Sequence record: NZ_CP041325.1 | From: a plasmid | DNA length: 64,000 bases | Reading direction: 5' to 3' (one strand) | Shown: one piece after another, positions 483 to 62,531 of the stretch | Position numbering within the stretch: the first letter of the stretch is position 1 | How the letters are laid out: every line of letters starts with the position of its first letter | The notes under the pieces: model-generated | What the model saw: only the letters and a program-made list of their open reading frames with translations | Databases searched by the model: none | What the model was told of the DNA's origin: nothing | Position numbers and translations under genes: made by a program

Positions 483-1765
483 ATGTTAGAGGTGAAAGCC
501 AAACCGGTGGAGTCCGAGTACAAATCGTTCGAGGAAATCACCGCTTACCGGAGGCAGCATCACAAAGTACTGGTTTTTCTTGGACCTGCTTTCATTGCCG
601 GCGTCGCTTACATCGATCCGGGGAATTTTGCCACGAACATCACGGCGGGTTCGAAATACGGCTATCTCTTGCTGTGGGTCGTACTGGTATCCAATTTAAT
701 GGCCATTCTTATTCAATCTTTATCAGCTAAACTAGGCATTGCTACCGGATTGAATCTTCCGGAAGTGTCGCGGGAAAATCTGCCCAAACCGGTATCTTTC
801 GGTCTATGGATTCAAGGCGAACTGGTCGTCATGGCAACTGATCTGGCCGAATTTATCGGAGCGGCTTTGGGGTTATATCTCTTGTTTGGCATTCCGTTGT
901 TTCCAGCAGCATTGATCGCTGCTGTCGGTTCTTTGCCATTCTGGAGTTGCAGCGAAGAGGGGTGCGCCAGCTGGAAGCCGGGATTGCGGGAATGGTACTG
1001 ATTGTGGTCCTCGCTTTTGGGCTGCAGATGGTTTTTGCGCAGCCGGAACCGTCTTCGATTTTCAAGGGGCTGTTCACACCTCAATTCCAAGGCGTGGATA
1101 GTGTCATGTTGGCCGCCGGTATCCTCGGGGCCACTGTTATGCCGCATGCTATCTACCTGCATTCCGCTCTAACGCAAAAACGCGTCATCGGGAAAACGGA
1201 AATCGAACGGAAACAGATTTTCCGCTATGAATTTTTTGATGTGTTGATTGCCATGATCATTGCAGGCGCAGTAAACGCCAGTATGCTGATTGTTGCGGCT
1301 TCCCTTTTCTTCGGCAATGGCCTGCTCGTTGAAGACTTGGATGTAGCTTTCACTCAATTTGGCGAGATCATCGGCCCGTTTTCCGCCATCTTGTTTGGGG
1401 TTGCCTTGCTGGCGTCCGGATTGGCGAGTTCTTCCGTTGGGACAAAAACCGGCGACATCATCATGCAGGGGTATATCAAACGCCGAATCCCGCTTTATGT
1501 GAGAAGAGCCATTACGATGATTCCGCCGCTGGCCATTATCGCGTTGGGCGTCAATCCGACAGCTGCGCTGGTGTTAAGCCAAGTCATCCTGTCTTTCGGC
1601 ATCCCGTTCGCCTTGGTTCCCCTGATCATTTTCACCAGTAACCGAAAAATCATGGGTAGCTTGGTGAACCATTGGCTAACAAAGTTCCTTGCTTGGGCCA
1701 TTGCCTCAGTCATCATTGTCTTGAATCTGTTCCTGCTGTACCAAACGCTCCAGGTGCTATTTTAA
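483..1765 (+). CDS. mntH: Nramp-family divalent metal (Mn2+/Fe2+) transporter MntH; one frameshift near 950-1000 splits it into ORFs 444..1001 and 947..1765
   Basis: Translation shows Nramp hallmarks (GPAFIAGVAYIDPGNFATNI..., MPHAIYLHS). RBS AAAGGAGG precedes ATG 483. The two ORFs are contiguous in adjacent frames. Confidence 0.8.
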
Positions 1766-4791: not shown

Positions 4792-5883
4792 TTAAATGCT
4801 TGTCATCAATCCCAAGTACATCGCTAAGACACAACATAAACTCATGACTAGCGAAACGCGTGCCGGCATCTTTTGCTTGAAGCAATACACAACCAGGAAG
4901 CCGAACACGGCTGCCACGAGTAAAAATAACATACTTAACAGATTAAACCCGAACTGCAAGGTCATGGCCGAATCGATACTTCCGGAATAGAAATAATCGA
5001 AGATTTTCGAGGGGCCACTGCTCCGTAAATAGGTCTCAATGGAATGGGGCGGCTCCTGCTGCCCCAAAACCCCCGTCGCAATGAAAATCAGCAGCAAGAT
5101 AACACTTTCCGCCTTTGCCCAAGGCAGCGGGTTGATGTTGCTGCCGCGCTGCAGTTTCCGTCGGATCCAAACCCCGTTGATGAGAGCAAAGAGCAGAACC
5201 GGCAGAACCATTAAATGCTTCAGCAACAACGCTTGCCCATAAGGCATCATCCACGTTTCCTGATATTCCGTCAGTTCGACGGCCAGGGTCATGATGAAGA
5301 GGCCGGAAACGATCACCACCGCCAAACAGCTCAGGGCTACTGGCGTGTACCACTTCAAGAAGGGCAGCCAGTTCTGCTGGGACGTGGAAAACCAGCTGAC
5401 GACCAGCAACAGGCCGACCCAGACCGTGACAGCCGCAAAATGAAGGGTATGGAAAACCAGCCCGCTCCAATCGGTCAGAGAAGCGGAATGGCTCGCCCAG
5501 CCTAAGGCGACCAGCAGAACTGCCGTGAATGCCAGAGCTGCCGCAATGAAGGCCTTTCGCTCCAATACAGGAATTACAGAAACAAATAGATAGAAAAAGA
5601 GCGATACGATAATGGTCAATGTCCAGGCTTTCCCTACTGCAAATTCTCCGATCACGTTCCGAATCGTCAGCAGCAACCCAATGTCTTCATATAAAAACAG
5701 GATCACGCGAACTACGGGTGCAGCAGACAACAGGACGATCCCCAGAATCGACACCTGCAGCACCCGTTTGGATAGCTTCAGCGGCGGCTTCAGATGAGGC
5801 GGAACCAAATGGATGAGCAACGTTCCGATTAGTAGTGAAAAACAAAGATAAAGCAACGCTTCCGTTACGTATACCGCAATCAT
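4792..5883 (-). CDS. copD: copper resistance protein CopD-family integral membrane protein
   Basis: 363-aa polytopic membrane protein immediately downstream of copC, translationally coupled by an ATGA overlap at 5883/5884. Corresponds to the YcnJ C-terminal region, present here as a separate gene. Confidence 0.7.
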   Translation of the reverse strand: MIAVYVTEALLYLCFSLLIGTLLIHLVPPHLKPPLKLSKRVLQVSILGIVLLSAAPVVRVILFLYEDIGLLLTIRNVIGEFAVGKAWTLTIIVSLFFYLFVSVIPVLERKAFIAAALAFTAVLLVALGWASHSASLTDWSGLVFHTLHFAAVTVWVGLLLVVSWFSTSQQNWLPFLKWYTPVALSCLAVVIVSGLFIMTLAVELTEYQETWMMPYGQALLLKHLMVLPVLLFALINGVWIRRKLQRGSNINPLPWAKAESVILLLIFIATGVLGQQEPPHSIETYLRSSGPSKIFDYFYSGSIDSAMTLQFGFNLLSMLFLLVAAVFGFLVVYCFKQKMPARVSLVMSLCCVLAMYLGLMTSI

Positions 5884-37993: not shown

Positions 37994-38027
37994 TGAATGT
38001 AACTTAATTTAGATTAAGTTACATTCA
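37994..38027. repeat. palindrome copy 1: TGAATGTAACTTAAT-TTAG-ATTAAGTTACATTCA
   Basis: Perfect 15-bp arms. Copies 2 and 3 are at 38661-38698 and 39489-39522. Confidence 0.8.
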
Positions 38028-38620: not shown

Positions 38621-38660
38621 TTTTCTTCCCCCCTAGTAACGACTCTTTTATTTAATTGAA

Positions 38661-38698
38661 ACTGAATGTAACTTAATTCACAATAAGTTACATTCAGT
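38661..38698. repeat. palindrome copy 2: ACTGAATGTAACTTA-N9-TAAGTTACATTCAGT
   Basis: Same 14-15-bp arm sequence as copy 1 with a different spacer. Confidence 0.8.
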
Positions 38699-38709
38699 TA
38701 AAGATTTTT

Positions 38710-39438: not shown

Positions 39439-39488
39439 GAAATCATCCTCCGTTTCCTTCCATTTCTTCTCAGAGTTTCATTGATTTT

Positions 39489-39522
39489 TGAATGTAACTT
39501 ATCTGCACATAAGTTACATTCA
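39489..39522. repeat. palindrome copy 3: TGAATGTAACTTAT-CTGCAC-ATAAGTTACATTCA
   Basis: Same arms as copies 1 and 2; about 50 nt upstream of the phosphoesterase start. Confidence 0.8.
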
Positions 39523-39692
39523 AATCCTAGTCTTCGCCCCAAAACTTCTACTTGGAATTTACCGGCCCTTTTTTCAATTCGTCCAGGTCGGTTTGCAGCT
39601 GATGAAACATAGCCAATAGCTGTTTTTATCGTTCCTGGCTCTTTTCTTTTGTTCTTTTGAAGTCTTTTACTACTGCTCAGATAAATTAGAGC

Positions 39693-41608: not shown

Positions 41609-41899
41609 TACTAAACAATAGTATTTGAGAAAGGACAATCACCCTTTATATTAATGATATTAAAGATGCTAGCTTATTTAGGGGATGACTCATGTTTAAG
41701 TGCGTGGAATTTAAAGAATCGATAGAGTGGTTAACTCTTGAGGATTATGAATTTTAATTAAGTAAATAAATGCAATATAGTTGTATGAAAATTTCCTAAA
41801 ATTGTTTGAACAAAGTTTTCCACAATGATATACTTGCATATGTTAGCATAAAACATTTTATGACAATTAAAATACATAATGAGATGGGGGAACAAGAAG

Positions 41900-42730
41900 A
41901 TGAAAAAGAACGACAGAGCGACCGTAGTGACGTTCGGTAATTTTAAAGGCGGCACAGGCAAGACGACCAACAGTACGATGATTGCATATGCTTTATCGGG
42001 TATGGGGTATAGAGTCTTACTGAGTGACCAAGACCCACAAGCGAATGCAACAAGCTTGTATCTGAAGACAAAGTCGGAAATCTCAGATGAAGTCGTAAGC
42101 TTCAATAAAACATTGATGACGGCCATCCAGGAAGAAAACCTCGAACAAATCGTTACGGAAATTAAAGAGAACTTGTATTTGCTTCCAAGCTTCAGCGATT
42201 TTGCTTTATATCCGAAATTATTAGAGAAGAAGTTCGTCAACGAAGTGGATCGTGTCCAATACTTTTCCAAATTGATTGAACCGTTAAAGGAAGATTTCGA
42301 TTTTATTTTCATCGATGTTCCTCCAACGATCTCAATTATCACGGATTCAGCACTATATGCTTCTGATTTTGTGGTGGTGGTTCTGCAAACGCAGGAACGG
42401 AGTCTACAAGGGGCAGAAGTATTTACTAAGTATCTCCAATCACTTATTGACGATTACAGTGCTGATTTAGACATTATCGGGATCCTCCCGGTATTGCTTA
42501 AGAACGGGGCAGCAGTTGATTTAGCAACTTTGGAAAATGCGAAAGAGATTTTCGGCGAAGAAAACATGTTTAATATCGTGGTAAAAAATATGGAGCGCTT
42601 GAAGCGTTTTGACATGACAGGCATCACAGATGATGACATGCATGATAGACGCGTGCATGAGAGCTATAAAGCAATTGCTGCGGAATTCATCTCAAGATTG
42701 AATGCTGAACTTGAAAGGGTGAGCCAGTAA
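41900..42730 (+). CDS. parA: type Ib ParA/ParF-family partition ATPase (small, no N-terminal HTH)
   Basis: Deviant Walker A FGNFKGGTGKTT, about 277 aa; followed by a small RHH gene. Confidence 0.85.
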   Translation: MKKNDRATVVTFGNFKGGTGKTTNSTMIAYALSGMGYRVLLSDQDPQANATSLYLKTKSEISDEVVSFNKTLMTAIQEENLEQIVTEIKENLYLLPSFSDFALYPKLLEKKFVNEVDRVQYFSKLIEPLKEDFDFIFIDVPPTISIITDSALYASDFVVVVLQTQERSLQGAEVFTKYLQSLIDDYSADLDIIGILPVLLKNGAAVDLATLENAKEIFGEENMFNIVVKNMERLKRFDMTGITDDDMHDRRVHESYKAIAAEFISRLNAELERVSQ

Positions 42731-42908: not shown

Positions 42909-43340
42909 GTGAAGAAATCAACCCGTGATCGATTAAATGCTTTGGTAAGTTTAAACAAGGCAGAAAACATCGATGAAATGATCGAAATTATGATTGATGA
43001 GTATTTTTCGGTTCATGTGACAAAAGATGAAAAAAAGCAGTTCGACATAGTCATGGATTTATACAAATCGAAAAAAGTAAATGAAAGTCCTTGGTTCCTG
43101 AATAGAACTGAGGATTTTTTAATTGGATTAAAAACGGCATGCAAGCATGCACATATGCTCGTATGCACGTATGCTGACATGTACATATGCGCATATATCC
43201 GTATGCAAGCATGCACATATGCAAATATACGCATATGCAAGCATGCACATATGCTCATATGCATGTATATGAAAGAAGGAAATATATTTAATCGTTTGAA
43301 ACGTTGTCATATCAAGCTTCTTGTAAAATTAAGAAAATAG
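42909..43340 (+). CDS. ribbon-helix-helix (ParG/CopG-like) centromere-binding protein candidate; the real 3' end is uncertain because the frame reads through repeat array D
   Basis: GTG start. KKSTRDRLNALVSLNKAENIDEMIEIMIDEYF is a beta-strand plus two helices, i.e. an RHH fold. An upstream ORF (from ATG 42731) may be an N-terminal tail fused by frameshifts. The ORF continues as Cys/His/Tyr-rich translation of the ATGC repeats (likely artefactual). Confidence 0.4.
   Translation: MKKSTRDRLNALVSLNKAENIDEMIEIMIDEYFSVHVTKDEKKQFDIVMDLYKSKKVNESPWFLNRTEDFLIGLKTACKHAHMLVCTYADMYICAYIRMQACTYANIRICKHAHMLICMYMKEGNIFNRLKRCHIKLLVKLRK
43137..43272. repeat. ATGC-box array D (about 17 units), immediately downstream of the partition genes
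   Basis: ATGC at strict 8-bp intervals (GCATGCAAGCATGCACATATGCTCGTATGCACGTATGC...). The subunit TATGCAAGCATGCACATATGC recurs three times. Confidence 0.85.
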
Positions 43341-43360
43341 GAATTGCTTTTACCTAAAAA

Positions 43361-43468
43361 TATGCACATATGCAAGCATGCGCATATACCTGCATGCACA
43401 TATGCACGCATACGCACATGCGAGTATGCAGATATGCTGATATATGCGTATGCAAGCATGCACATATG
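43361..43468. repeat. ATGC-box array E (about 13 units)
   Basis: Same 8-bp periodic motif; separated from array D by about 90 nt. Confidence 0.85.
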
Positions 43469-43721
43469 CTGGCATGCGGGTTTATAAAGCGCCCCGAAAC
43501 CCTATTGTATCAACGTTTTTTCTCTTCTATACTTTAAAACTAACTAGGAAAAGGTTCAGTTTTAGGGAGGGGGGAGACAGTGGTGGAAGTGAAAAGAGTA
43601 CTGGAATCGATTTTGCATGATGGTATTTCGATGTATAAAAAGATCGGCTCTGCTGCACCGCTGCCGCAGCTTTTAAAAGCACAAAAAACCTCCCTAAAAA
43701 AGTAAACAAGGGGCAATCTGC

Positions 43722-51848: not shown

Positions 51849-52103
51849 ATGAAAGATACACTGAGTCGAATGGCTGCCTTTCAACAAGCCGTTCAAAAGC
51901 GGATGGAACGATTGATTGATCGCTTAGCTCGTAATGCAATCGCCCAAGAGGAACGGAAATACGAATTGCTTTATGGCAAACCGCTTAGTGAGCAAGAAAA
52001 GATGGATATTAAAAAAGGTGTGGTTCTCCGGTTATCGATGTTTTTGCTAGTACCTTTACTTATTATAGTTCTAACCCTTATGAATAGAGGGATGATGTCA
52101 TGA
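51849..52103 (+). CDS. small membrane protein (84 aa, C-terminal TM)
   Basis: Overlaps the next gene by 4 nt (ATGA); hydrophobic C-terminus. Confidence 0.4.
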   Translation: MKDTLSRMAAFQQAVQKRMERLIDRLARNAIAQEERKYELLYGKPLSEQEKMDIKKGVVLRLSMFLLVPLLIIVLTLMNRGMMS

Positions 52104-53125
52104 AAAGATGGATGAACCTATTAACTGTCTTATTGATATTAGTATTATCGATGCCCATTCAGGTATTCGGGGAAGAGGGCGACTTCATGGATGAAACTAT
52201 TACAGAATACAGCAAAACAGAAGGAGTAAAAGAACAAAGCATTAAAAACGCAGAGTCGTATATGAAGAATGTTTTATATCTTGAAAAATACAATTATGAA
52301 ACTAATCAATTCGATTGTAAGTGGCATGAAATTGGATGTCATACAAATAGTTTTCTATTCACTACAGTCAGTGGCTTTGTATATGGAGCGATTGATAGCT
52401 TCAGTAAATTTCAATTAGATGAAAGCTTTATTACTGAAAATCCTGTCTACGAGGGGTATATGCTAAATTTCAAATCTCTCGCTTGGACAATTGCAGCCAT
52501 CTTTATTCTGTGGCAGACACTTAAAATCGTCATTCTATATAGTGGAAATGGCGAAGAGGGAATGAATTCCCTTTACGACAAGTTGGTGGCTACTGTAACT
52601 GGCGGCATTTTATTAGGTATCTATGGACAGTTTTTCGATTGGATTCTCGAATTAACTCATCTGTTAACTGAAACAATGCTTACATCTCCCGTAACTCATT
52701 ACGATATCATGCAAGTCATGGCAATAAATTCTGTAGGCTATGGATTAATACTGATGGTTGTGGTTTCTGCGATACTATTCGTATTCTTCCTGTCAGTTCT
52801 ATATCGTACAGTGCTCTTCGTTATCCTGTATATAACTGGAGTTATTGCTATCCCGACTATAGTGAACGATCAATATAATTTCTTTAATCTTTGGTTAAAA
52901 ACTGTAGTAAGTAATATTTTGACTCTTACAATTCAATTGCTCTGTTTTGTGCTTGGAATAAAGACATTAGTAAACCTTCAAGGCGGAAATATGATTATCG
53001 GAATGATTTTCTTTATCGTGGGTCTATCAATCCCAACATTATTAAACCAATTTGGAGCGTCAACCGGTTCTGCAAAAGCCGTTGGTTCATCTATAAAATA
53101 CGTTGCGCGGTATGCTCGACGATAA
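52100..53125 (+). CDS. VirB6-like polytopic T4SS channel protein (ConG/TcpH-like)
   Basis: Signal peptide, extracellular domain with four Cys, then 5-6 TM helices. Position after VirB4 and the hydrolase. Confidence 0.5.
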   Translation: MKRWMNLLTVLLILVLSMPIQVFGEEGDFMDETITEYSKTEGVKEQSIKNAESYMKNVLYLEKYNYETNQFDCKWHEIGCHTNSFLFTTVSGFVYGAIDSFSKFQLDESFITENPVYEGYMLNFKSLAWTIAAIFILWQTLKIVILYSGNGEEGMNSLYDKLVATVTGGILLGIYGQFFDWILELTHLLTETMLTSPVTHYDIMQVMAINSVGYGLILMVVVSAILFVFFLSVLYRTVLFVILYITGVIAIPTIVNDQYNFFNLWLKTVVSNILTLTIQLLCFVLGIKTLVNLQGGNMIIGMIFFIVGLSIPTLLNQFGASTGSAKAVGSSIKYVARYARR

Positions 53126-53139
53126 TAGGAGTGGTTATA

Positions 53140-53885
53140 TGAAGAAATGGTTATTAATATCGTTACTCTTGATATTGGGAGTCTTTTTAGCATCTTGTAA
53201 TTCTAATAATGAGGAAATTGGGGAGGCAGAATCTGAAGAAAAGAAACCTTTTACAAACTCAGATATTGAAAAAACTAACGAGATGATAGATTTTTTAAAT
53301 GAAAAGATGAGAGAGTTTGAGAATAAAGCTAATAATGCAATTGAAAGTGGACAGATTAAAATTGGTGATAATGAGCGATTAATAGAGGAGATACAAGGCT
53401 TAGGACAAGAAAGTGTAATTCAGCCATTTTTAGAAAAGTACCCAAATAGCTTAATTTCAAAAAATGAAGAAGATAGTTCTATCCCGATTACAGTCGAGCC
53501 CACTAGTAGCGAATCATGTACTTTAGGAAATTGCACTTATGAAAAAATCAATGTTATTGAAGTTGATTTTGATACAGATAAAAGTAAGGAATATCATTCT
53601 AGAAATTTCAAAATCACTCAACTGATTTTTTGATAATGTAAAAACTTTATCAAAGGTTGAAGGGGAAATTGAAGAAGGAGAACTACGCTTTGTCAAAACT
53701 AAAGATAATAATTTAGTTATAACCTCTATTCCTAATATTCAGCTGCAAACGTTATATATTGATGAAATGGATAGCGAATATGAATCTATAGCAACCGATG
53801 TGCCAGAAAGTGAAGTAGAAGCCGAACAAGCTGAATACAAAAAGGAAGTAGAGGAAACGCTAGCGAAGTTCCCGAAACTTCAATA
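53140..53885 (+). CDS. lipoprotein (lipobox LASC); one frameshift near 53625 in a T-run
   Basis: MKKWLLISLLLILGVFLASCNSNN is a type II signal peptide. Translation continues in the adjacent frame to 53885. Confidence 0.5.
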
Positions 53886-53904
53886 ATCCTTGTAAGAAAG
53901 GGGC

Positions 53905-55465
53905 ATGTTGCAGATGGTGATTCGCACGATTGCTAATAAGGTCGGAACGATTGAAGTAAATGGCAATTCATTTTATTTTCTTCAGCCACTCTCTACCTTC
54001 AACACGGATCAAATGGAACGGATCCAACAGGCTTATGAACGGCGGATGGCTTCCTTAAAAGAAGAAACGCATTATTTAGTCGCAAAAAGCCTGACATTCC
54101 AGTCAGGGCAGGTTCAATTCGAATATGATTTGAGCGGATTAAAGGCTTATGATTACTTGAAGTCCCTTTATTTCGAAGATAAGCTACCTTACTACTTGTC
54201 ATTGGTACGTATTGCGCAAAATATGGAGGTCAACGTCCTTTGGCAAAAGGAAAACTTTGTGGTGGATGTGGAAGAGCAAGTACTTAAAGCGGCAGTTCTG
54301 GAAAACGAAGAGTTGAAACTGTATGACTCAAAAGACCGGGTAACTGCTGTCAAAGAATTGATTATCGTGTCGCTGACCAGTTTGAATCAAGTATTGGGGC
54401 GGCCGAAAAGAAGCGATTTTTTCGAACAGGATGAAGAAGTGATCCGTTTTGCTGAAATGGTCTATCTCCGTCTATCTACATTAGAGGAATTAGAATCTTT
54501 TATTTCTCAGGTCCACGTTGAAATTCAGGAACGGAAGCGGTTAGAAGAAGAGGAACGTGAAAAACTTATAGCCAATAATAAACACTTTGCTTTTACAAGT
54601 CTAAAACTTAACAAGAAACTTAATTCTCCAGGTAAAGATAAGGAGCATCTTCCTTACTTACAAGGCAAGCAAAAGAATAAGGGAAATAAAGCAGCTACTT
54701 CTAAGGAGAGCAATATCCGCTTCCTAGCGGGCGTTGGGGGTATATTGATTGTCGCAGTTCTCTTGAATGTCCTCTTAACCAATGCAAATGAAAATGCAGA
54801 AGCTAAAGATGCTGGGAAAGAAGAAGTGAAACAGGAGATAAACCTTGAAGAGACATACCGTCAAGGCCTGCTAGGAGATGAAACAACGGTCATTAAAACC
54901 CTGGAAACCGTAGGGTATGATTCTTTAAAAAAAGAAGAAAAAAGAAGTCTTAGAGGTATTGTATGTGAGAAATAGGGAATACAATAAAGCGCTGGAAAAA
55001 AATCCGGAGCTGGCGGGTGAAATTGCTGCTAAACTGGTTAAGAGCAAGGACATCAAACAACTGGAGGAAGTTCGTGCTTCTTTACCTGAACCCAACCCTA
55101 TTGTGGATTTTGACTTGGCAGCAGCGACACACGATTGGCAAACCGTCATTGATTTACGGAACCAGATTGAATTAACGGGTGCTCACATGACTACCGTTGT
55201 GACAGCTTTTATCCGGACCGGTGATTTGAAGACAGCTAAAGGATTTGTGGAAGAGAAAGCTGCCGGCGATAAAAAGTTACTAAACCGGGTACTTGAAGCT
55301 GAGAAAAAGCAAAATGAACTCGCTGCGTTGAAAGTGGAAAAAGCAGAGAAACAAAAAGTGATTGATAAAGATACCGATAAGAAGAAGATAAAAGCGGCTC
55401 AAGATCGGATTAAAGCGATTGATAAGCAGATGAAGGCATTAACGGAAGAAATGAAAAACGGCTAA
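53905..55465 (+). CDS. membrane-anchored protein with an EssB/YukC-like (type VII secretion pseudokinase-fold) N-domain, single TM, Lys-rich extracellular tail; one frameshift near 54950
   Basis: By-eye similarity to S. aureus EssB blocks (QVQFEYDLSG vs SFQIHYDIND; KLPYYLSLVRIAQN vs KLRYLLNIKNLEEV). TM helix IRFLAGVGGILIVAVLLNVLL at about residue 280; KAEKQK-rich C-terminus. Confidence 0.45.
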
Positions 55466-55478
55466 GGGGGGCTGGAAT

Positions 55479-55730
55479 GTGCATACCAAGAGAATCAACA
55501 GTTTAGGGCGTATCGTCATTCCAAAAGAAATTCTGGAAGTTTTTCAATTAAGTGAAGGGGATTCTGTAGATATCATGCATAACGAGACTCAAATCATTAT
55601 TGAGCCCCACAAAAAGCGGTATCTATGCGCAGTAACGGGTAAGATTGCAAGTGAAGCTATCCAAATCGGAGAAGCGTGGATTAGTAAAGAAGGCATGAAA
55701 AAAATTGTAGAGTATATGAGCATGGAATGA
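55479..55730 (+). CDS. AbrB/SpoVT/MazE-type regulator, paralog of 37334..37606
   Basis: INSLGRIVIPKEILEVFQL swapped-hairpin motif; shares the C-terminal C-x-VTGxI motif with the 37334 gene. Confidence 0.65.
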   Translation: MHTKRINSLGRIVIPKEILEVFQLSEGDSVDIMHNETQIIIEPHKKRYLCAVTGKIASEAIQIGEAWISKEGMKKIVEYMSME

Positions 55731-55896
55731 AAAGACAGTCGGGTTTCAATTAACCTGACTGTCTTTTATATTTGTCCAATTACTCCAAGAAAGCGTTTCT
55801 CTTTTCATTGTCCTTCTTTATTTTTACTTTAATTGACTCTTTATCAATCGAATCACAATTTCTGCATCACTCGGGTATTTCAACGGCAGCTCCTTT

Positions 55897-55989
55897 TTAA
55901 TTAGTCTCTTCAACGTTTAATTCACTATCAAATGCAACCTTGCATTTGATGGTGAGCACACAGCAAAAGTAAAATATGCATAACTGCAT
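55897..55989 (-). CDS. candidate 30-aa signalling pro-peptide gene immediately downstream of the RNPP regulator (MQLCIFYFCCVLTIKCKVAFDSELNVEETN)
   Basis: RBS GGAGGAA 1 nt before ATG 55989 (very close spacing). Hydrophobic N-half, polar C-half; PapR/NprX-like genomic position. Contains the palindrome TCAAATGCAA-CC-TTGCATTTGA (55928-55949). Confidence 0.3.
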   Translation of the reverse strand: MQLCIFYFCCVLTIKCKVAFDSELNVEETN

Positions 55990-56055
55990 ATTCCTCCTTT
56001 ATTTATTCTGATAGTTTAATAGCTATAAGTTATTGCTAATGGAGAAACCAATAAA

Positions 56056-56943
56056 TTAATTTGTTGTACTTCCTAAGAGGTAATGCGACTTGTTCTCTAG
56101 CAAAATATTTGTGTATACCTCTAAATCAAGCATCTCAAAAAAGAATTGTGCTTTCTGATAAGAAGCTGAAATTTCTGCGGCGGAAAAGTCCAGTTTTTCT
56201 AATAAAGCGCCTTTTTGGTAGTAGAATTGGCCGAGCAAAGACATATTTGCACCTTCGACTGAAAGGCGGATGCCTTGGTCGGTGTAATGAAGGGAGGACG
56301 TATAGTCTTTCTTCAAATAAAGCAATTTTCCAAAGTTATAAATCACTTTTATTTTAAGATTGTTTGCTTCGGTAGTATCCAGCTTTTCGTTTAATATACT
56401 TTGATAAAGTTCACCACTTTCCTTAAAGTGGTTGTTTTCGGCGTAAAGGTTCGCAATCGTATTTTTGATATGGAGATCCAGCAGATTATCCGTACCCAGC
56501 ATTTTCTTTCGTATTAACAGGAGAAGTTCGGTTCTGCAATTATTGGCATCAAGACGGCCTAAATAATAAGCAGCTGTGTAGTTATGCCATAGAAGAAATT
56601 TCTTTGTTTCGGGATGTTGAGCAATCTCTTGAAGCAGCAACTCTTCTGTGTAATGAAAAAGTTCTTTATGATTTTTGCTGGAGGACAGCGCCCATACTTT
56701 ATTCTTAATGGCTTTGATTTCTTCGGCTTGTTCATGAGCCAGGATTTCAAAGAAATAATTGATGGGAATCTGAAGCTGATTGGCAATTAAATAAAGGAGA
56801 TCCAAACTCGGAAAAAATTCACCTGCTTCAATTCGGCTAATTTCGGATTGGCTGCACATGCCTTCAGCTAGTTGATGTTGCGTGAGCTTTTTTGCTTTGC
56901 GAAGCTTTTTTATTTCCAGTCCCAGCTTTTGTTTATCGAGCAT
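56056..56943 (-). CDS. RNPP-family (Rgg/PlcR/NprR-like) quorum-sensing regulator: N-terminal XRE HTH plus TPR-like peptide-binding domain
   Basis: HTH LTQHQLAEGMCSQSEISRIEAGE; about 230-aa helical-repeat C-domain. 295 aa. Confidence 0.75.
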   Translation of the reverse strand: MLDKQKLGLEIKKLRKAKKLTQHQLAEGMCSQSEISRIEAGEFFPSLDLLYLIANQLQIPINYFFEILAHEQAEEIKAIKNKVWALSSSKNHKELFHYTEELLLQEIAQHPETKKFLLWHNYTAAYYLGRLDANNCRTELLLLIRKKMLGTDNLLDLHIKNTIANLYAENNHFKESGELYQSILNEKLDTTEANNLKIKVIYNFGKLLYLKKDYTSSLHYTDQGIRLSVEGANMSLLGQFYYQKGALLEKLDFSAAEISASYQKAQFFFEMLDLEVYTNILLENKSHYLLGSTTN

Positions 56944-57140
56944 ATAAACACCTTCAAATTCTATAAATTCTCTTATAATCTTATAAATAGGGTGGATAAA
57001 ATTTACTTTTATGTATTAAGTAAATCAAATATAACAGGTTTGATAAAGGTCCAGGCTATCAAAATTGCTTCAGCAGGATTTTCTTCGGTTTGCTGCCTAG
57101 TTAAATTTGAATGACTGAAAAGTTTAAGGGATGAGGTTGG

Positions 57141-59202
57141 ATGGTGCTATACAATAATTTATTTCTATTTTATTTAAAACAAGTGATTAAAAATCCCTTA
57201 TATATCGGAACGTTGCTTTTTATGGTATTCATGTTGCTCGTACGTATTCTTATTCGAGTCAATGAACCGTTTGATTATTGGAATTACGGGAGTCTGGTAG
57301 GCGAGATGATGATCGTTATACAAGCAGCCATGTTATTGATAATTGTCTACTTCTATAAATTATTTTCAGATGAATTCCGATTTGGAGCCGCTAAACTCTT
57401 TCCGGGATTTTTCAAAGTTACTTTGCTAAAGATATCTACTTTATTGACTGTTCATTCTTTCGTATTGGCCTTTTTTGTCGGCAGCCAAATTCTTCTAGTG
57501 ACGACTTACTTTCATTTATCCGATATCCCTTTTTCAAGTTTCTATAACCAAACCGCGATATACATAATTGTCTATTGGTATTTGCCTTTAGTGCTTGCTT
57601 TTACAATTGGTATTCTTGCAGCGCTTCTGTTTGGAAAAAATAAGATGGCGCTAGTTTTCATGATTCTGTTGTGGATTGCAGTTGGACCGATGAATACGAC
57701 GTTTTTCTCTCAATTATTTCAGCAATATTCATTCACTGATATAGAGAGTCTCTTTTATATCGGGCCATTAAGCAACGAAACACCTTTTAATGATTTAATT
57801 GGATATAACGTGACTCTTTCGGCTTTTTTTCAAGGTTCTTTTCTGGATTTTTTCGCTTCTCGGATTAGTTGTGTTGGTTCTAATGAAAACAGCACGTGCA
57901 GTGCGGGAAAAAGGCATCTTATTGGCCCTGGTTCTCCTCTTGGTAATCTGTAATGGGTTGATTTTCCCTTATATATTCACCGATGGAAAAGCCGCATTCA
58001 ATTTTGCTGACCAAGAGTCGGAGATCCTATTTTATAAAAACGGCCCCAAAAAGATTTCGTTCACACAAACGCAATATGAAGTTAAAGCCTATGACATTCG
58101 TTTGAAAACAGAAGGGCAAATACGCATTGAAACTGAACTCGCCCTTGCTAATATCCAAACGGGAATTTTGGGTTTCGTCTTCTACCATAACTTCGATTTG
58201 GAGAAAATTATAGATGAACAAGGCAAATCTCTTCCCTTTATCCAACAAGGGGATTTCCTGATGGTGCAGCGAGCATCTGAATTGCCGGAAGAGAAGCTCA
58301 CATTTACCTACAAGCTGAACGACTCAACTTTGTTGCCTGTTAGTGAAAAGTATTTGTTTCTGCCTAACTCAGTTAGCTGGCTTCCCACAAAAGCAAATCA
58401 CGCACCTTTCGCTTTTAACCAGATCATCGAAGAAGGGGTAAATATCTCCTCTGTTCAAGGCGAAGAAGCGGTTCAATATGCCTTAACTGTTGAAGGGGAT
58501 CTCCCCATTTATACGAATTTGCCTTCTAGCGGAAAAAACTTCTACAGCGGAGAAGTAGTGGGAGGAGTCACTCTGCTCGCAGGTATGCTGATTGAAAGGG
58601 AAATAGGCGGTAAAACGATTGTATATCCGAACTCTTGGCCAGATCCTTCAAAGGATTGGAAGGCCTATGAAGAAGTTCTGACCAACGTACATGCCGAGCT
58701 TAATGAAATGTTTGGGCTTAAGAAGCCACTACCTGATCAGATTATCTTTTTAAGTTTTAAGAGGGATGCTTATACGAGCTACCAAAGCACAAACCATCTG
58801 CTCTATATCAGCGGTTCCCATTTCAGCCTCAGTTCTCAGCTGAATGAGATTCCAAGTATCTATATAAACGCTTATTTGTGGAACTCTATACAAGGCAATT
58901 TACTAGACCTGGAACAAGTCCTTGTATTCAATGAACTGCTTGCCGGATACCTTCACGGAGAAATAGACATTAACTCGCCGATTTCCTATACAGTCAATGG
59001 AATACCGCTGTATTTGGGATTTGAGAAGAACGATAAGGAAACCCAGGAAATCATTAGTCAGTTCTATAAAGAATTTTATGATTTGGAAAAAGAGGAGCAA
59101 AGAGCCTTTCTTGTTGTATGGTACAAAAAGATGAATCAGTTAACAGAAGGTTGGCCAGAAGCAAAACAGCTCTTGAAGGAGTTTGAGGAGGGCAGAATAT
59201 GA
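57141..59202 (+). CDS. large polytopic membrane protein (about 687 aa) with a big extracytoplasmic domain, putative ABC-transporter permease/accessory component; one frameshift near 57850
   Basis: About 6 N-terminal TM helices, a roughly 400-aa soluble domain. Stop overlaps the start of the ABC ATPase (ATGA at 59199). Confidence 0.5.
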
Positions 59203-60066
59203 TTCGAATTGAGAACCTGAGTAAGCGTATAAAAAAATATCATATCTTGTCTGAAGTGTCGCTGGACATTGAAGGCATATACGGATTGATTGGTCCAAAC
59301 GGGGCAGGAAAGACAACGTTGATGAAAATATTAGCCAGTTTAACTTCGATGAATGCAGGAAACATCCAGATGGACGGGAACAACATGGTGAAAGGGAAGT
59401 ACGTTAAACAAAACATGCTGGTTGGCTATTTGCCGCAGGATTTTATGGTATATCCGAATATCCCTTTAGAAGAAGCATTAGACCATATTGCCATGCTTCA
59501 AGGATTGATGAACAAACACGAACGAAAAATAAAAGTGGGCCAAGTGATTAAAGAAGTAAATCTCCAAGGACACGAGCATAAGAAAATGATTGAATTGTCC
59601 GGCGGTATGAGAAAGCGGGTAGGGATAGCACAGTTATTACTTGGCAATCCCTCCATCTTAATCTTTGACGAACCGACAGCAGGATTGGATATTGAAGAAC
59701 GAATCCGATTTCGTAATCTGCTTCGACATTTAGGGGAAGAGCGAACCATCATCATCTCTTCACATATTGTTGAGGATATTGAATTTTTAAGTACAAAGAT
59801 TGGCGTCTTGAAAAACGGGCGTGTTTTTGTTTGAGGGTTCTCCTGCAGAACTAAAGGCATTGGCCAAAGGCTCCGTTTGGGAGTATCGAATAAGAATGGA
59901 AGAGCTGGATGACATGGTTAGATACAAAAAGGTGGTGCAAGTGACGGAAGAGAATGAAGGCTTTACAGTCCGTGTTTTTTCTCAAGAGAAGGAAGAAGGG
60001 GCTGAGCTTGTCAAAGCTAAGTTAGTTGATGGATATCTTGCTGCAGTTGCTGGTGGATCTGGATGA
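59199..60066 (+). CDS. ABC transporter ATP-binding protein; one frameshift at about 59825 (T-run)
   Basis: Walker A GPNGAGKTT, signature LSGGMRKRVGIA, Walker B ILIFDEPTAGLD, H-loop SSHIVED. Confidence 0.85.
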
Positions 60067-60708
60067 AGGATTTTGCTGAAAGCCTCTACCTTTCTTTTCT
60101 ATTTGATCGAAAAACAATGGGCGTCACCTTTTTTGTTCCCGTTTTTATATTCAGCATTGTCTTACTGCTCATTCTTGTTGTCCCAAAAAATACGGCCGAT
60201 AGCTACAATAATGTAATTTTGATACAGGGTGGGTTTATTCCATTTTCTTGTTGGTGGCTTATGTATCGGCTTAGTGAGATATATGAAGAAGGTGCACAAG
60301 AAACGTTAGCACCTTATTACAGCAAAAGCTTTATGGTGGATTTTTTACGCTATTACGTGTTGAATACTTTAGCCACTTGTTTGTTGAGTGCTGCACTCGT
60401 CATGAGGCATGGAATTGAGGCATTGCCACTGGTCAACTTTATTCATTTCTTTTTACTACTCTTATTTTTTTATGTGGTTAGGCTCATTTCTGATTGTGCT
60501 TATCAAAAATATTGAAATAGCGCTCACAATCGTGCTCATCTTTACGGTTTTGGAAGTGGCTACATTAGGGGAATACATGCCTTGGCCGCATATCTTTTTG
60601 TTTGAATACCCGGTTTGGGACCCTGTCTTAGCTAGTAAGTTTACCGTTTTATCAATTGCTATTCTTATCTTGGTTATCATTACAATAATCTTTTTAAAAA
60701 GAATCTAA
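60063..60708 (+). CDS. ABC-2-type transporter permease; one frameshift at about 60470 (T-run)
   Basis: Six hydrophobic helices; overlaps the ATPase stop (ATGA). Confidence 0.55.
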
Positions 60709-60947
60709 TGTAGAACGATTAATGATTCAATCGAATAGACATATACTTTAACTTTTGAATTCATCTAAAGGTACTTAAGGAGTTTTTAACAAGTAGTGTA
60801 TGTTCGTCCATAGATAGATTTTATAGGTTCTAATGATTAGTGAAAAATTGATTCGAGATGAATAAATAACATATTCAAAAAGAGATGGAGAATCGTTAAA
60901 TTCCCCATCTCTTTTTATAAAGATTTTACGTTAGTATTTAAATTCTT

Positions 60948-62531
60948 CTATTGAATATTGACGCTTTCTCTTTCGCTTAATAAACCGCCTGCTGCTTTCG
61001 CTCGAATCTTCGTCGCATTCCCTGGAAGGTAGGAGAGGGGAACCTCTTCTAGATCAACTAGAACCAGTTGTTCTGGATCGGCTCCTGCCTCAATTGCTTG
61101 CTGAAAAGCAAGTTGTTTAGCCAATTCCAATGTTTTCTCGCGTCCGAGCTCATCGGTGTTAAAGATTTTTTCGATTTCTCCGCTTACTTGTGAAATGGCA
61201 GAACCGATGGCATTTGCAACGCCTGAATTTTTCGGTTTAATGACTTCGGATGCACCTTTCAACTGATCAGAGAAGAGAATGCTGCCTCCACCGACAAGGA
61301 TAACCGGCACAGGTTCAGAACTTGTCTTCATCTTATCGATGGTCTCTTCAGCCATTTCCACCATCTTAGCGTAGATTCTTCCGACGAGTTCTTGGTTTAA
61401 ATGTGCGACCAGATCGGGATTTCCAAGTTGGGCTTTTCCTGTTGCCACCGCAATGTCGGTAGTTGTTAATGTATCACCGCCAAAGACGAGTCCTTTTTCA
61501 ATCAGACGGTAGCCGACGCTTTCGGGCCCAATCTGGAACGATTCATCTTCATTGACCGTGATGATCGTTCCGCCCCCAAGTCCGATTGAAGCGATATCCG
61601 GCATACGGAAATTCGTCCGGACACCACCGATTTCAACTGCCAGGGAAGATTGGCGAGGGAAAGACCCGACAAGGACTCCGACATCGGTTGTCGTTCCGCC
61701 GACATCCACGACCAGTGCATCGGGGTGATCCGTCAGGTAAGCCGCTCCACGCAAGCTGTTGGTCGGTCCACAGGCAATCGTCAATATCGGGTATTTCACT
61801 GTGTATTCAACTGACATCAGTGTCCCATCGTTCTGTCCAAAGAATACATCGGCATGGATGCCTTCTTTTTCAAGCGCTTTGACGAAGCCGTCTGCTGTAG
61901 AACGGGCGACGTCTACAATCGCAGCGTTTAAAATCGTTGCATTTTCCCGCTCAAGCAAACCGACACTGCCGATTTCACTGGAAAGAGAAATGACGGTCTC
62001 CTCACCCATAACTTCTTTAATAATGGCAGCGGCACGCAATTCATGGTCGACCGATACTGGTGAAAAGACAGAAGTGATGGCAATTGAGTCAACTTTACCT
62101 TTTAATTCTTCAGCGATACGACGGATTTCCTGTTCATCAAGTGCGGTGATTTCACGGCCATCGAATTCATTTCCTCCACGCACGATATAAATATGCTTCC
62201 CAAGAATCGCTTTCAGGTCGTCCGGAACGCCAACAAGCGGTTTGATGGCCATTGTTGCCGGTGCGCCAATCCGGATTGCAGCGACTTTATTGAGTCGTTT
62301 TCGCTCGACAATTGCATTCGTACAATGAGTTGTGCCAAGCATCGCATAACGAAATTGCTCTGTTGGTACACCGGAAGCTGCCACCACTTTATTTAATGCT
62401 TCGTAAATTCCGGAACTGACATCCTCTGTCGTGGTTGCCTTTACTTCAGAAATCACATTGTATGATTCATCCAGAACGACGGCATCTGTATGTGTTCCGC
62501 CGACATCGATTCCAATACGGTAATTTGCCAT
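60948..62531 (-). CDS. hydantoinase/oxoprolinase-family protein (HyuA-like, N-terminal hydantoinase domain; ASKHA fold)
   Basis: N-terminus MANYRIGIDVGGTHTDAVVL (ASKHA phosphate-1 motif) and a second DVGGTTTD motif. 527 aa. Confidence 0.75.
   Translation of the reverse strand: MANYRIGIDVGGTHTDAVVLDESYNVISEVKATTTEDVSSGIYEALNKVVAASGVPTEQFRYAMLGTTHCTNAIVERKRLNKVAAIRIGAPATMAIKPLVGVPDDLKAILGKHIYIVRGGNEFDGREITALDEQEIRRIAEELKGKVDSIAITSVFSPVSVDHELRAAAIIKEVMGEETVISLSSEIGSVGLLERENATILNAAIVDVARSTADGFVKALEKEGIHADVFFGQNDGTLMSVEYTVKYPILTIACGPTNSLRGAAYLTDHPDALVVDVGGTTTDVGVLVGSFPRQSSLAVEIGGVRTNFRMPDIASIGLGGGTIITVNEDESFQIGPESVGYRLIEKGLVFGGDTLTTTDIAVATGKAQLGNPDLVAHLNQELVGRIYAKMVEMAEETIDKMKTSSEPVPVILVGGGSILFSDQLKGASEVIKPKNSGVANAIGSAISQVSGEIEKIFNTDELGREKTLELAKQLAFQQAIEAGADPEQLVLVDLEEVPLSYLPGNATKIRAKAAGGLLSERESVNIQ

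Follow-up and report, generated by a model that had tools for sequence, protein, structure and literature searches.

The closest described relative of the locus reported here is the Bacillus cereus group's PlcR-PapR system of quorum sensing. Its receptor PlcR (structures from B. thuringiensis, PDB 2qfc, 3u3w and 4fsc) combines a helix-turn-helix (HTH) domain with a tetratricopeptide repeat (TPR) domain and recognizes a 16-bp palindromic operator, the PlcR box. DNA binding and transcriptional activation that depend on the peptide, and its re-import by Opp, are further marks of the system. In B. cereus, papR lies behind plcR on the same strand, and autoregulation of plcR proceeds via its own box. 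We analyzed a locus of this type in a 64-kb window (64,000 nucleotides of sequence record NZ_CP041325.1) of a plasmid of ~158 kb from Planococcus glaciei; the scan was confined to this window. Our sequence analysis suggests that the locus is a PlcR-type quorum-sensing module from which the signal gene has been lost, and that the regulator is most likely an orphan receptor. As in the PlcR-PapR system, the regulator has HTH and TPR domains (~40-45% identity to PlcR over the full length), the operator conforms to TATGNAN4TNCATA, and the residues that contact the PapR glutamate are the same. The propeptides of its relatives carry a Sec-type signal peptide and an xLPFEx motif at or near the C-terminus, comparable to ADLPFEF, the PapR signature in B. 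cereus (PMC6568020). In contrast to the B. cereus system, the host is a Planococcus (Planococcaceae) and the locus lies on a conjugative plasmid. Furthermore, papR and plcR are convergent in this clade, where a box precedes papR but not plcR, and the window has no papR and a box with a non-A/T base in its centre.

Other peptide receptors offer partial parallels. RapB of B. subtilis uses PhrC, which comes from another locus (PMC9765709). The regulator resembles RapB in being an intact, maintained receptor with no adjacent signal gene, implying that the peptide would be encoded elsewhere; it differs in being a PlcR-type transcription factor and not a Rap phosphatase, and in that its orphan state is deduced from a deletion scar. 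The LuxR "solos" are a conceptual analogue of a receptor without a linked signal gene. Like PrgX/PrgQ of pCF10 and Rap/Phr of pLS20 and ICEBs1, the regulator is an RRNPPA receptor on a conjugative element beside transfer genes, and the convergent receptor and peptide genes of its relatives, with no terminator detected, loosely recall prgX/prgQ counter-transcription. However, PrgX is only distantly similar (14-17% identity, template modelling (TM) score ~0.45-0.5), there is no Rap domain as in pLS20 and ICEBs1, and, unlike in the peptide-gated conjugation systems, the surroundings of the conjugation operon and of its upstream region contain no PlcR box. The regulator shares the general RRNPPA fold and the XRE-type HTH with Rgg/SHP and ComR/XIP of streptococci, whereas the sequence match to these proteins is confined to the HTH and first helices, identity is 15-19%, and there is no SHP-like conserved small open reading frame (ORF). 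Two large surveys of RRNPP(A) systems make no mention of Planococcus, and a literature link between Planococcus and PlcR was not found. The regulator is clearly a member of a known family with a known operator. What is unusual is that it occurs on a plasmid and in Planococcaceae, that papR is convergent in its relatives, and that the receptor has been retained although papR is lost.

For comparison, we used 28 homologous loci of ~8.9 kb each from genomes and metagenomes. A profile search of genome contigs with alignment A1 gave 22 loci; a single-protein query gave none. L032 (99.3% identical) and L033 (identical save for two indels) are independent assemblies of the same plasmid, and a P. glaciei plasmid has an annotated protein with 100% identity to the regulator. 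When positions 52000-61000 were compared with PLSDB by megablast, the sole match was the TrbL region of a P. maritimus plasmid.

The preliminary description of this DNA had placed an Rgg/PlcR-type (RNPP) regulator with an HTH plus TPR architecture at 56056-56943. This architecture was borne out: Pfam HTH_3 matches residues 11-64 (1.4e-12) and RNPP_C matches residues 80-289 (8.6e-78), and an AlphaFold2 (AF2) model is all-helical with a confidence score (pLDDT) of 91. Only the PlcR half of the name can be kept. In a phmmer search against solved structures, the regulator matched B. thuringiensis PlcR (2qfc) over residues 4-284 (E 3e-63), and a 20-sequence profile matched PlcR over its full length (7.5e-91), PlcR being the sole strong match. 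The Rgg and ComR structures matched the HTH and first helices alone (E 1e-2 to 4e-8); those of Rgg aligned to residues ~4-106 only (E 4e-3 to 4e-8). The model had been proposed for comparison with PlcR, PrgX and Rgg, and in a Foldseek search the five best PDB matches were all PlcR chains (38-41% identity, TM 0.70-0.86), with ComR, Rgg and PrgX ranked behind at 14-19% identity (Rgg, 15-17%). K90, Q239, Y277 and N203 of the regulator align with PlcR K89, Q237, Y275 and N201, the last of which we take to be the conserved asparagine of RNPP proteins. In PlcR, K89, Q237 and Y275 make specific contacts with the glutamate of PapR7 (PMC6568020). Because the Pfam, structure-database, fold and contact-residue matches all point to PlcR, the regulator is, by sequence and predicted structure, a genuine receptor-type protein of the PlcR subfamily and not an Rgg. 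Nor was there a sign of Rgg/SHP membership: the Rgg-type C-terminal domain was not matched and the adjacent small ORFs are unconserved among relatives.

The PlcR box consensus, TATGNAN4TNCATA, has been described together with its tolerance (PMC2464732). In the window, this consensus has one perfect match (0.06 expected), TATGCATAACTGCATA, which lies 66 bp past the regulator stop codon and is the putative operator of the regulator. A perfect box is present in 23 of the 28 homologous loci, and nearly all of these 23 have exactly one. In a five-way alignment of the window, L029, L006, L005 and L002 (alignment A4), the box of the window aligns with the box upstream of papR in the other four loci. 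The relaxed core ATGhAnnnnTdCAT has five matches in the window as compared with 0.8 expected, and the box itself is among the five.

The gene that this box serves in relatives is a papR-type gene. In L005 (P. kocurii), L006 (a metagenomic plasmid fragment), L007 (P. beigongshangi), L008 (Planococcus sp. CAU13), L023 (Bacillus sp. AFS015802), L029 and L030, an ORF of 46-59 amino acids lies between the regulator stop codon and the PlcR box, on the strand opposite to the regulator. It has a good ribosome-binding site (RBS) and encodes a Sec-type signal peptide as well as, at or near the C-terminus, an (E/D)LP(F/Y)Ex motif (Table 1). The conjugative plasmid L029 has the same gene order as the window, namely TrbL, 248-amino-acid protein, 516-amino-acid protein, AbrB, papR, convergent plcR and ABC (ATP-binding cassette) genes. 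In the nearest relatives the box is ~32 nt upstream of a TATAAG -10 element, and in A4 the box, TATAAG and RBS precede a papR-like gene of 52-57 amino acids. In the window, the TATAAG and RBS are still recognizable, but the regulator stop codon (56056-58) comes at once, six bases after the relic RBS, and the papR coding sequence is gone. The chromosomal paralogue L002 keeps only the first 21 codons of papR. As judged from this alignment, the papR-type gene of related plasmids is deleted in the window. A six-frame search of the window found no ORF ending in an LPFE-type motif, and a PapR hidden Markov model (HMM) had no significant match in the six frames (best E 0.26).

Two further ORFs were tried and rejected. 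The plus-strand 42-amino-acid ORF at 55772-55900, the second-best PapR-HMM match (E 0.57), has a signal-peptide-like N-terminus. It was ruled out as papR because it has no RBS, is antisense to the lipoprotein-gene remnant described below, has a stop-broken counterpart in L002 and shows no homology to the spacer of L029 and L006. The 98-amino-acid ORF at 56061-56357, which follows the relic RBS and is antisense to the 3' end of the regulator gene, was not accepted as a gene either; we attribute it to the coding constraint of the regulator because a comparable ORF exists in papR-bearing loci.

The arrangement of papR varies among relatives. In L029 (5923-7058), L006 (4001-5151) and L005 (4001-5120), which keep papR, the stop codons of the convergent papR and plcR overlap or abut, and no terminator between the two genes was detected. 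Therefore, PlcR-activated papR transcription should read antisense into plcR, and it is possible that this readthrough is a built-in negative feedback. In the more distant relatives L018-20 and L022, the papR-like gene is divergent and upstream of the regulator. In the Bhargavaea/Edaphobacillus type (L009; similar in L010-L012 and L014-L017), ~3.3 kb separate the PlcR box from the plcR homologue. L009 is the one locus of this type read in detail; there, the box (660-675) is followed by a gene for a 36-amino-acid PapR-like peptide (490-600, minus strand, …TFTELPFEMLS), and genes for 290-amino-acid and 767-amino-acid proteins of unknown function lie between it and plcR. This would be a split PlcR-PapR arrangement of a kind missed by adjacency-based detectors.

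We then asked what the sequences say of the state of the regulator. Between the regulator and its P. glaciei chromosomal paralogue (L002; 89% identical), the synonymous divergence (dS) is 0.53 and the ratio of nonsynonymous to synonymous divergence (dN/dS) is 0.10, and neither of the two loci compared has a complete papR. On this measure the regulator is under strong purifying selection. The regulator protein is identical across the three assemblies, and a block upstream of its gene is strongly conserved (see below). Together, these three observations argue for a maintained function and hence for a predicted orphan receptor. We propose the following mechanism. The regulator probably still works, given the purifying selection and the retained PapR-glutamate residues, and would be activated by an imported xLPFEx-type peptide made elsewhere: on another replicon, on the remaining 94 kb of the plasmid, or in neighbouring Planococcus cells or their plasmids. 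By analogy with PlcR, the activated regulator would bind the PlcR box. The sole cis product of the surviving promoter would be an RNA antisense to the 3' end of the regulator gene, and the real target genes would lie outside the region.

Several points weigh against this proposal. Binding and activation, the dependence on a peptide and the antisense transcript are predictions from sequence. The purifying selection is averaged over the whole branch and is compatible with a very recent loss of function. Mutagenesis in B. cereus gave the stricter core ATGhAwwwwTdCAT (PMC2464732); the box centre in the window, TAAC, has one non-A/T base and does not match this core. The equivalent central substitution left the B. 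cereus plcA promoter a few percent of its activity (PMC2464732), and by analogy the box in the window may be weakened. The search of 5.8 billion proteins with a PapR profile, which favours the proposal in that none of its 10 matches came from P. glaciei, is word-seeded and insensitive for such short peptides. It should also be mentioned that a papR-type gene may be present elsewhere on the ~158-kb plasmid or on the chromosome, as the distance of 3.3 kb in Bhargavaea illustrates.

The preliminary description had regarded a 30-codon ORF at 55897-55989, preceded by GGAGGAA, as a peptide gene in the PapR/NprX position. The ORF exists mechanically. However, its ATG (55987-55989) falls inside the PlcR box, the supposed RBS is the purine-rich flank of the box, and the gap between GGAGG and the ATG is only 3 nt. 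The box-start ORFs of every locus begin with M-(Q/H/Y)-LCIF, which is the box translated, and beyond this prefix the ORFs of relatives (14, 19, 25 or 30 codons) are unrelated in sequence. Codons ~15-30 correspond, in the same frame, to the C-terminal part of a lipoprotein-like protein of 103 amino acids encoded in L002, and the ORF is ended by a stop at the position of a His in L002. At ~55964, L032 and L033 have TTTTT (T5) as compared with TTTT (T4) in the window; the T5 version of the ORF encodes 20 amino acids with another C-terminus, MQLCIFYFLLCAHHQMQGCI. An alternative 17-amino-acid frame, MHILLLLCAHHQMQGCI, was rejected because it is unconserved among relatives. We judge from these comparisons that the 30-amino-acid ORF is the ATG of the operator read through junction and pseudogene sequence and not a peptide gene. 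The pseudogene is a degenerate 3' remnant of the lipoprotein-like gene. It has ~65-75% identity to L002 over ~215 bp, terminator included, carries an in-frame stop and a frameshift, and lacks ~240 bp present in L002 (the promoter and the 5' part of the gene). In L002, an intact gene for the 103-amino-acid protein (5113-5424, with an LLLSGC lipobox) lies downstream of the box on the strand of the regulator. The protein matched no Pfam or NCBIfam family and is a candidate PlcR-regulated surface protein.

Within the ORF, a perfect palindrome had been reported at 55928-55949. The palindrome is real, but its extent is 11-2-11, ATCAAATGCAA-cc-TTGCATTTGAT, at 55927-55950. It is unique in the window and exceeds the expectation from block shuffles (~0.4 palindromes with arms of at least 11). 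The palindrome marks the 5' edge of the lipoprotein-gene remnant, and 44 bp separate its centre from that of the PlcR box; it is kept in L032 and L033 and absent from all other loci. It fits the relaxed core and has in common with the bona fide L008 box that box's inner 14 nt, ATGCAAnnTTGCAT. Its centre, AGGT, would be unfavourable for B. cereus PlcR by the mutagenesis data (PMC2464732). From its sequence, the palindrome may be a second, weaker PlcR-box-like site, and we rank this assignment above a terminator; in the proposed mechanism it would serve the orphan regulator as such a site. The intrinsic terminator of the region lies elsewhere, at 55730-55767, and L002 has a homologous hairpin. 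An Rfam scan of 55000-61000 gave a sole match, a sub-threshold microRNA model on the terminator hairpin.

On the other side of the regulator, a divergent three-gene ABC transporter that could export a peptide had been described. The three-gene cluster at 57141-60708 was confirmed. PapR-type propeptides are exported via the Sec pathway (PMC2464732; PMC9765709). With Sec-type signal peptides, these propeptides do not need an ABC exporter of their own, and in the proposed mechanism the cluster would be a conserved neighbour without a PlcR box. The pairing of regulator and ABC genes recurs in the window, L001-3, L006 and L029, whereas the close relatives L005 and L030 have other divergent neighbours. 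The ATPase belongs to an ABC-2/DrrA/GldA-like group, with every family match below cut-off, and the two membrane proteins matched no Pfam or NCBIfam family. All three genes are frameshifted in the window at T-runs (57824, ~59821 and 60465). For the first gene, both fragments match P0039, the public 686-amino-acid protein of the plasmid, at 99.6-100%; therefore, the frameshift in this gene is a homopolymer error, and probably those in all three are. The intergenic region 56944-57140 contains no PlcR box, perfect or relaxed. It does contain a block of ~40 bp (56993-57033) that hardly varies between the window, the chromosomal locus L002 of P. glaciei and the plasmids L006 and L029, whereas its flanks diverge (alignment A5). 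The inverted repeat in this block, ATTTACTT-N9-AAGTAAAT, is a candidate operator of the plcR/ABC divergent region unrelated to the PlcR box.

These results allow the rival explanations to be weighed. That the 30-amino-acid ORF encodes a PapR/NprX-like propeptide, which is exported (possibly by the ABC system), re-imported and gates conjugation, is in our judgement hardly credible. The ORF is accompanied by a purine-rich upstream stretch and has a hydrophobic N-terminus, and it lies downstream of the regulator on the same strand, like papR in B. cereus. Nevertheless, its start codon inside the box 3 nt from GGAGG, the lack of conservation past M-x-LCIF, the pseudogene remnant in its C-terminal half, the 20-amino-acid version in two other assemblies and the absence of an LPFE-type motif all speak against such a role. 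The PapR/NprX position could not be upheld either: the true propeptide gene of relatives is on the opposite strand. It also seems improbable that the palindrome is only an RNA hairpin that terminates or stabilizes the regulator transcript, a function that the preliminary description had allowed for. What stands of this is that the palindrome, ~105 nt downstream of the regulator stop on the same strand, is predicted to fold as a hairpin of greater stability than shuffled sequence (-19.9 kcal/mol for 76 nt, z -2.67). However, no T-tract follows the hairpin, the terminator scan did not flag it, the stem is A/T-rich, a strong canonical bidirectional terminator lies 160 nt beyond, and the sequence fits the relaxed PlcR-box core. 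Similarly, we give little credence to a regulator that is peptide-independent or has another ligand and mainly controls the ABC operon via the intergenic inverted repeat. The recurrent pairing of regulator and ABC genes favours such a role, as does the conserved block in which the repeat overlaps promoter-like hexamers; but the repeat is unlike the PlcR box, which accompanies the subfamily in 23 of 28 loci, L005 and L030 have different neighbours, and the pocket keeps its PapR-glutamate-specific residues.

Two explanations concern the fate of the orphan regulator. One is that the locus is a decaying relic, in which a regulator without signal and target is becoming a pseudogene and has no current function. 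The deletion of papR, the degenerate gene on the other side of the box, the substitution in the box centre, which is strongly deleterious in B. cereus (PMC2464732), and the absence of another perfect PlcR box from the window are what such decay would leave. In contrast, the 295-codon ORF of the regulator is intact, dN/dS has stayed at 0.10 over a dS of 0.53 since the split from a paralogue also without a full papR, every residue that contacts the peptide is retained, the promoter/operator block upstream shows strong conservation, and the protein is identical in three assemblies. We therefore consider a relic unlikely, though conceivable. The other explanation goes further than the orphan receptor that we prefer: the regulator, as a PlcR "solo", may eavesdrop on xLPFEx peptides of related Planococcus plasmids or hosts (for example that of L029, ...PNTDLPFES) and regulate plasmid functions via a foreign signal, namely the ABC system, its own gene by antisense control or, indirectly, transfer or exclusion, with the box and palindrome as a dual operator. 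We regard this as a speculative possibility with a small chance of being correct. The orphan receptor, with its peptide source left broad, remains our preferred reading.

Table 1 Positions of features in the window, and C-termini of papR-like peptides in relatives
Feature	Position or C-terminus	Strand or orientation	Basis or reading
AbrB/MazE/SpoVT-domain protein, 83 amino acids, last gene of conjugation operon	55479-55730	+	Pfam MazE_antitoxin 1.3e-10; NCBIfam AbrB 8.2e-10
Bidirectional intrinsic terminator of conjugation/AbrB operon (+) and regulator transcript (-)	55730-55767	.	16-bp stem, then T-run
Degenerate 3' remnant of lipoprotein-like gene	55824-55950	-	Pairwise alignment with L002
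30-codon ORF	55897-55989	-	Judged no gene: chimera of PlcR box, junction sequence and pseudogene remnant
Perfect 11-2-11 palindrome	55927-55950	.	Best guess: weaker PlcR-box-like site
PlcR box, putative operator of regulator, overlapping ATG of 30-amino-acid ORF	55975-55990	.	Consensus match
Relic papR promoter/leader (-10-like TATAAG 56024-56029; RBS GGAGAAA 56041-56047)	55991-56055	+	A4
PlcR-family (RNPP) transcriptional regulator, 295 amino acids, XRE-type HTH and TPR-like peptide-binding domain	56056-56943	-	Pfam, phmmer, AF2
Conserved promoter/operator-like block upstream of regulator: TTGATT-17-TAAATT overlapped by ATTTACTT-N9-AAGTAAAT	56993-57033	-	A5
Divergent ABC cluster, three genes	57141-60708	+	tblastn with intact L001 proteins
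686-amino-acid membrane protein	57141-59202	+	
287-amino-acid ABC ATPase	59199-60066	+	ABC_tran 2.9e-29
219-amino-acid membrane protein	60063-60708	+	
L005 papR-like peptide	...FPNTELPFEN	convergent	
L006 papR-like peptide	...FPNTELPYEH	convergent	
L007 papR-like peptide	...DIKLPFEF	convergent	
L008 papR-like peptide	...ETDLPFEY	convergent	
L023 papR-like peptide	...ESDLPFEH then seven further residues	convergent	
L029 papR-like peptide	...PNTDLPFES	convergent	
L030 papR-like peptide	...DTELPFEN	convergent	

The window contains maintenance genes (ParA, a DUF5388 partner and RepA_N) and a plus-strand conjugation operon with VirB4/TraG-like fragments, an M23 cell-wall hydrolase and TrbL. An AbrB-like gene at 55479 and the end of this operon had been described on the other side of the regulator, and both were supported by Pfam and NCBIfam matches and by the terminator at 55730-55767. 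A nearly identical AbrB-like gene is present at the same position in L006, L029 and L032; it belongs to the plasmid backbone and not to the PlcR module. It had further been proposed that the RNPP regulator and its peptide form a switch for conjugation. The sequence upstream of the conjugation operon contains neither a perfect nor a relaxed PlcR box. Because no PlcR box lies near this operon, control of conjugation by the regulator is unsupported, as is the proposed switch, although indirect control is possible. Near-boxes at 43202, 43234 and 43449, before conjugation genes, were rejected as PlcR targets because they are units of a tandem array. This array (43139-43477) consists of ATGC-rich units with periods of 8/16/32 bp (consensus ATGCACAT / ATGCAAGCATGCACATATGC...) and holds three copies of TATGCAAGCATGCACA, one mismatch off the PlcR box. 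It starts within the DUF5388 ORF (42909-43340) downstream of parA (41879-42730) and stops just short of the next plus-strand genes; we take it to be a probable partition centromere or iteron array. In addition, a long perfect palindrome family, TGAATGTAACTTA-N(4-8)-TAAGTTACATTCA, has three copies (37994-38027, 38660-38699 and 39487-39524) in the intergenic gaps of a minus-strand set comprising a 104-amino-acid ORF, a metallophosphoesterase and a DUF5063 protein. This family looks like a repeated operator of another regulator.

As compared with the two other assemblies of the same plasmid, the window differs solely by single-base homopolymer indels, two of which disrupt conjugation genes that other sequences show whole. 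Relative to other assemblies of this plasmid or to its public proteins, homopolymers differ in length by a single base at 53626, 54938, 55466, 55964, 57824, ~59821 and 60465. They split the 248-amino-acid and 516-amino-acid conjugation genes and all three ABC genes, and alter the small ORF. This pattern is typical of an unpolished long-read assembly, and the frameshifts in the window are probably sequence errors rather than pseudogenes. Caution is therefore needed in reading other fragmented ORFs of the window, such as the VirB4-like pieces at 47-50 kb.

The locus carries a lesson for annotation: a Shine-Dalgarno-like stretch and an ATG beside an RNPP gene can be the operator of the regulator. 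It also indicates that PlcR-PapR systems with a canonical box and LPFE-type peptides reach beyond the B. cereus group into Planococcaceae and conjugative plasmids, and that a signal gene can disappear while selection on its receptor persists. Should the orphan receptor be active, it would offer a tractable case of inter-plasmid signal eavesdropping; if not, it is an ordinary family member. Eavesdropping, if true, would be an interception of signals between plasmids of a kind undescribed for the PlcR subfamily.

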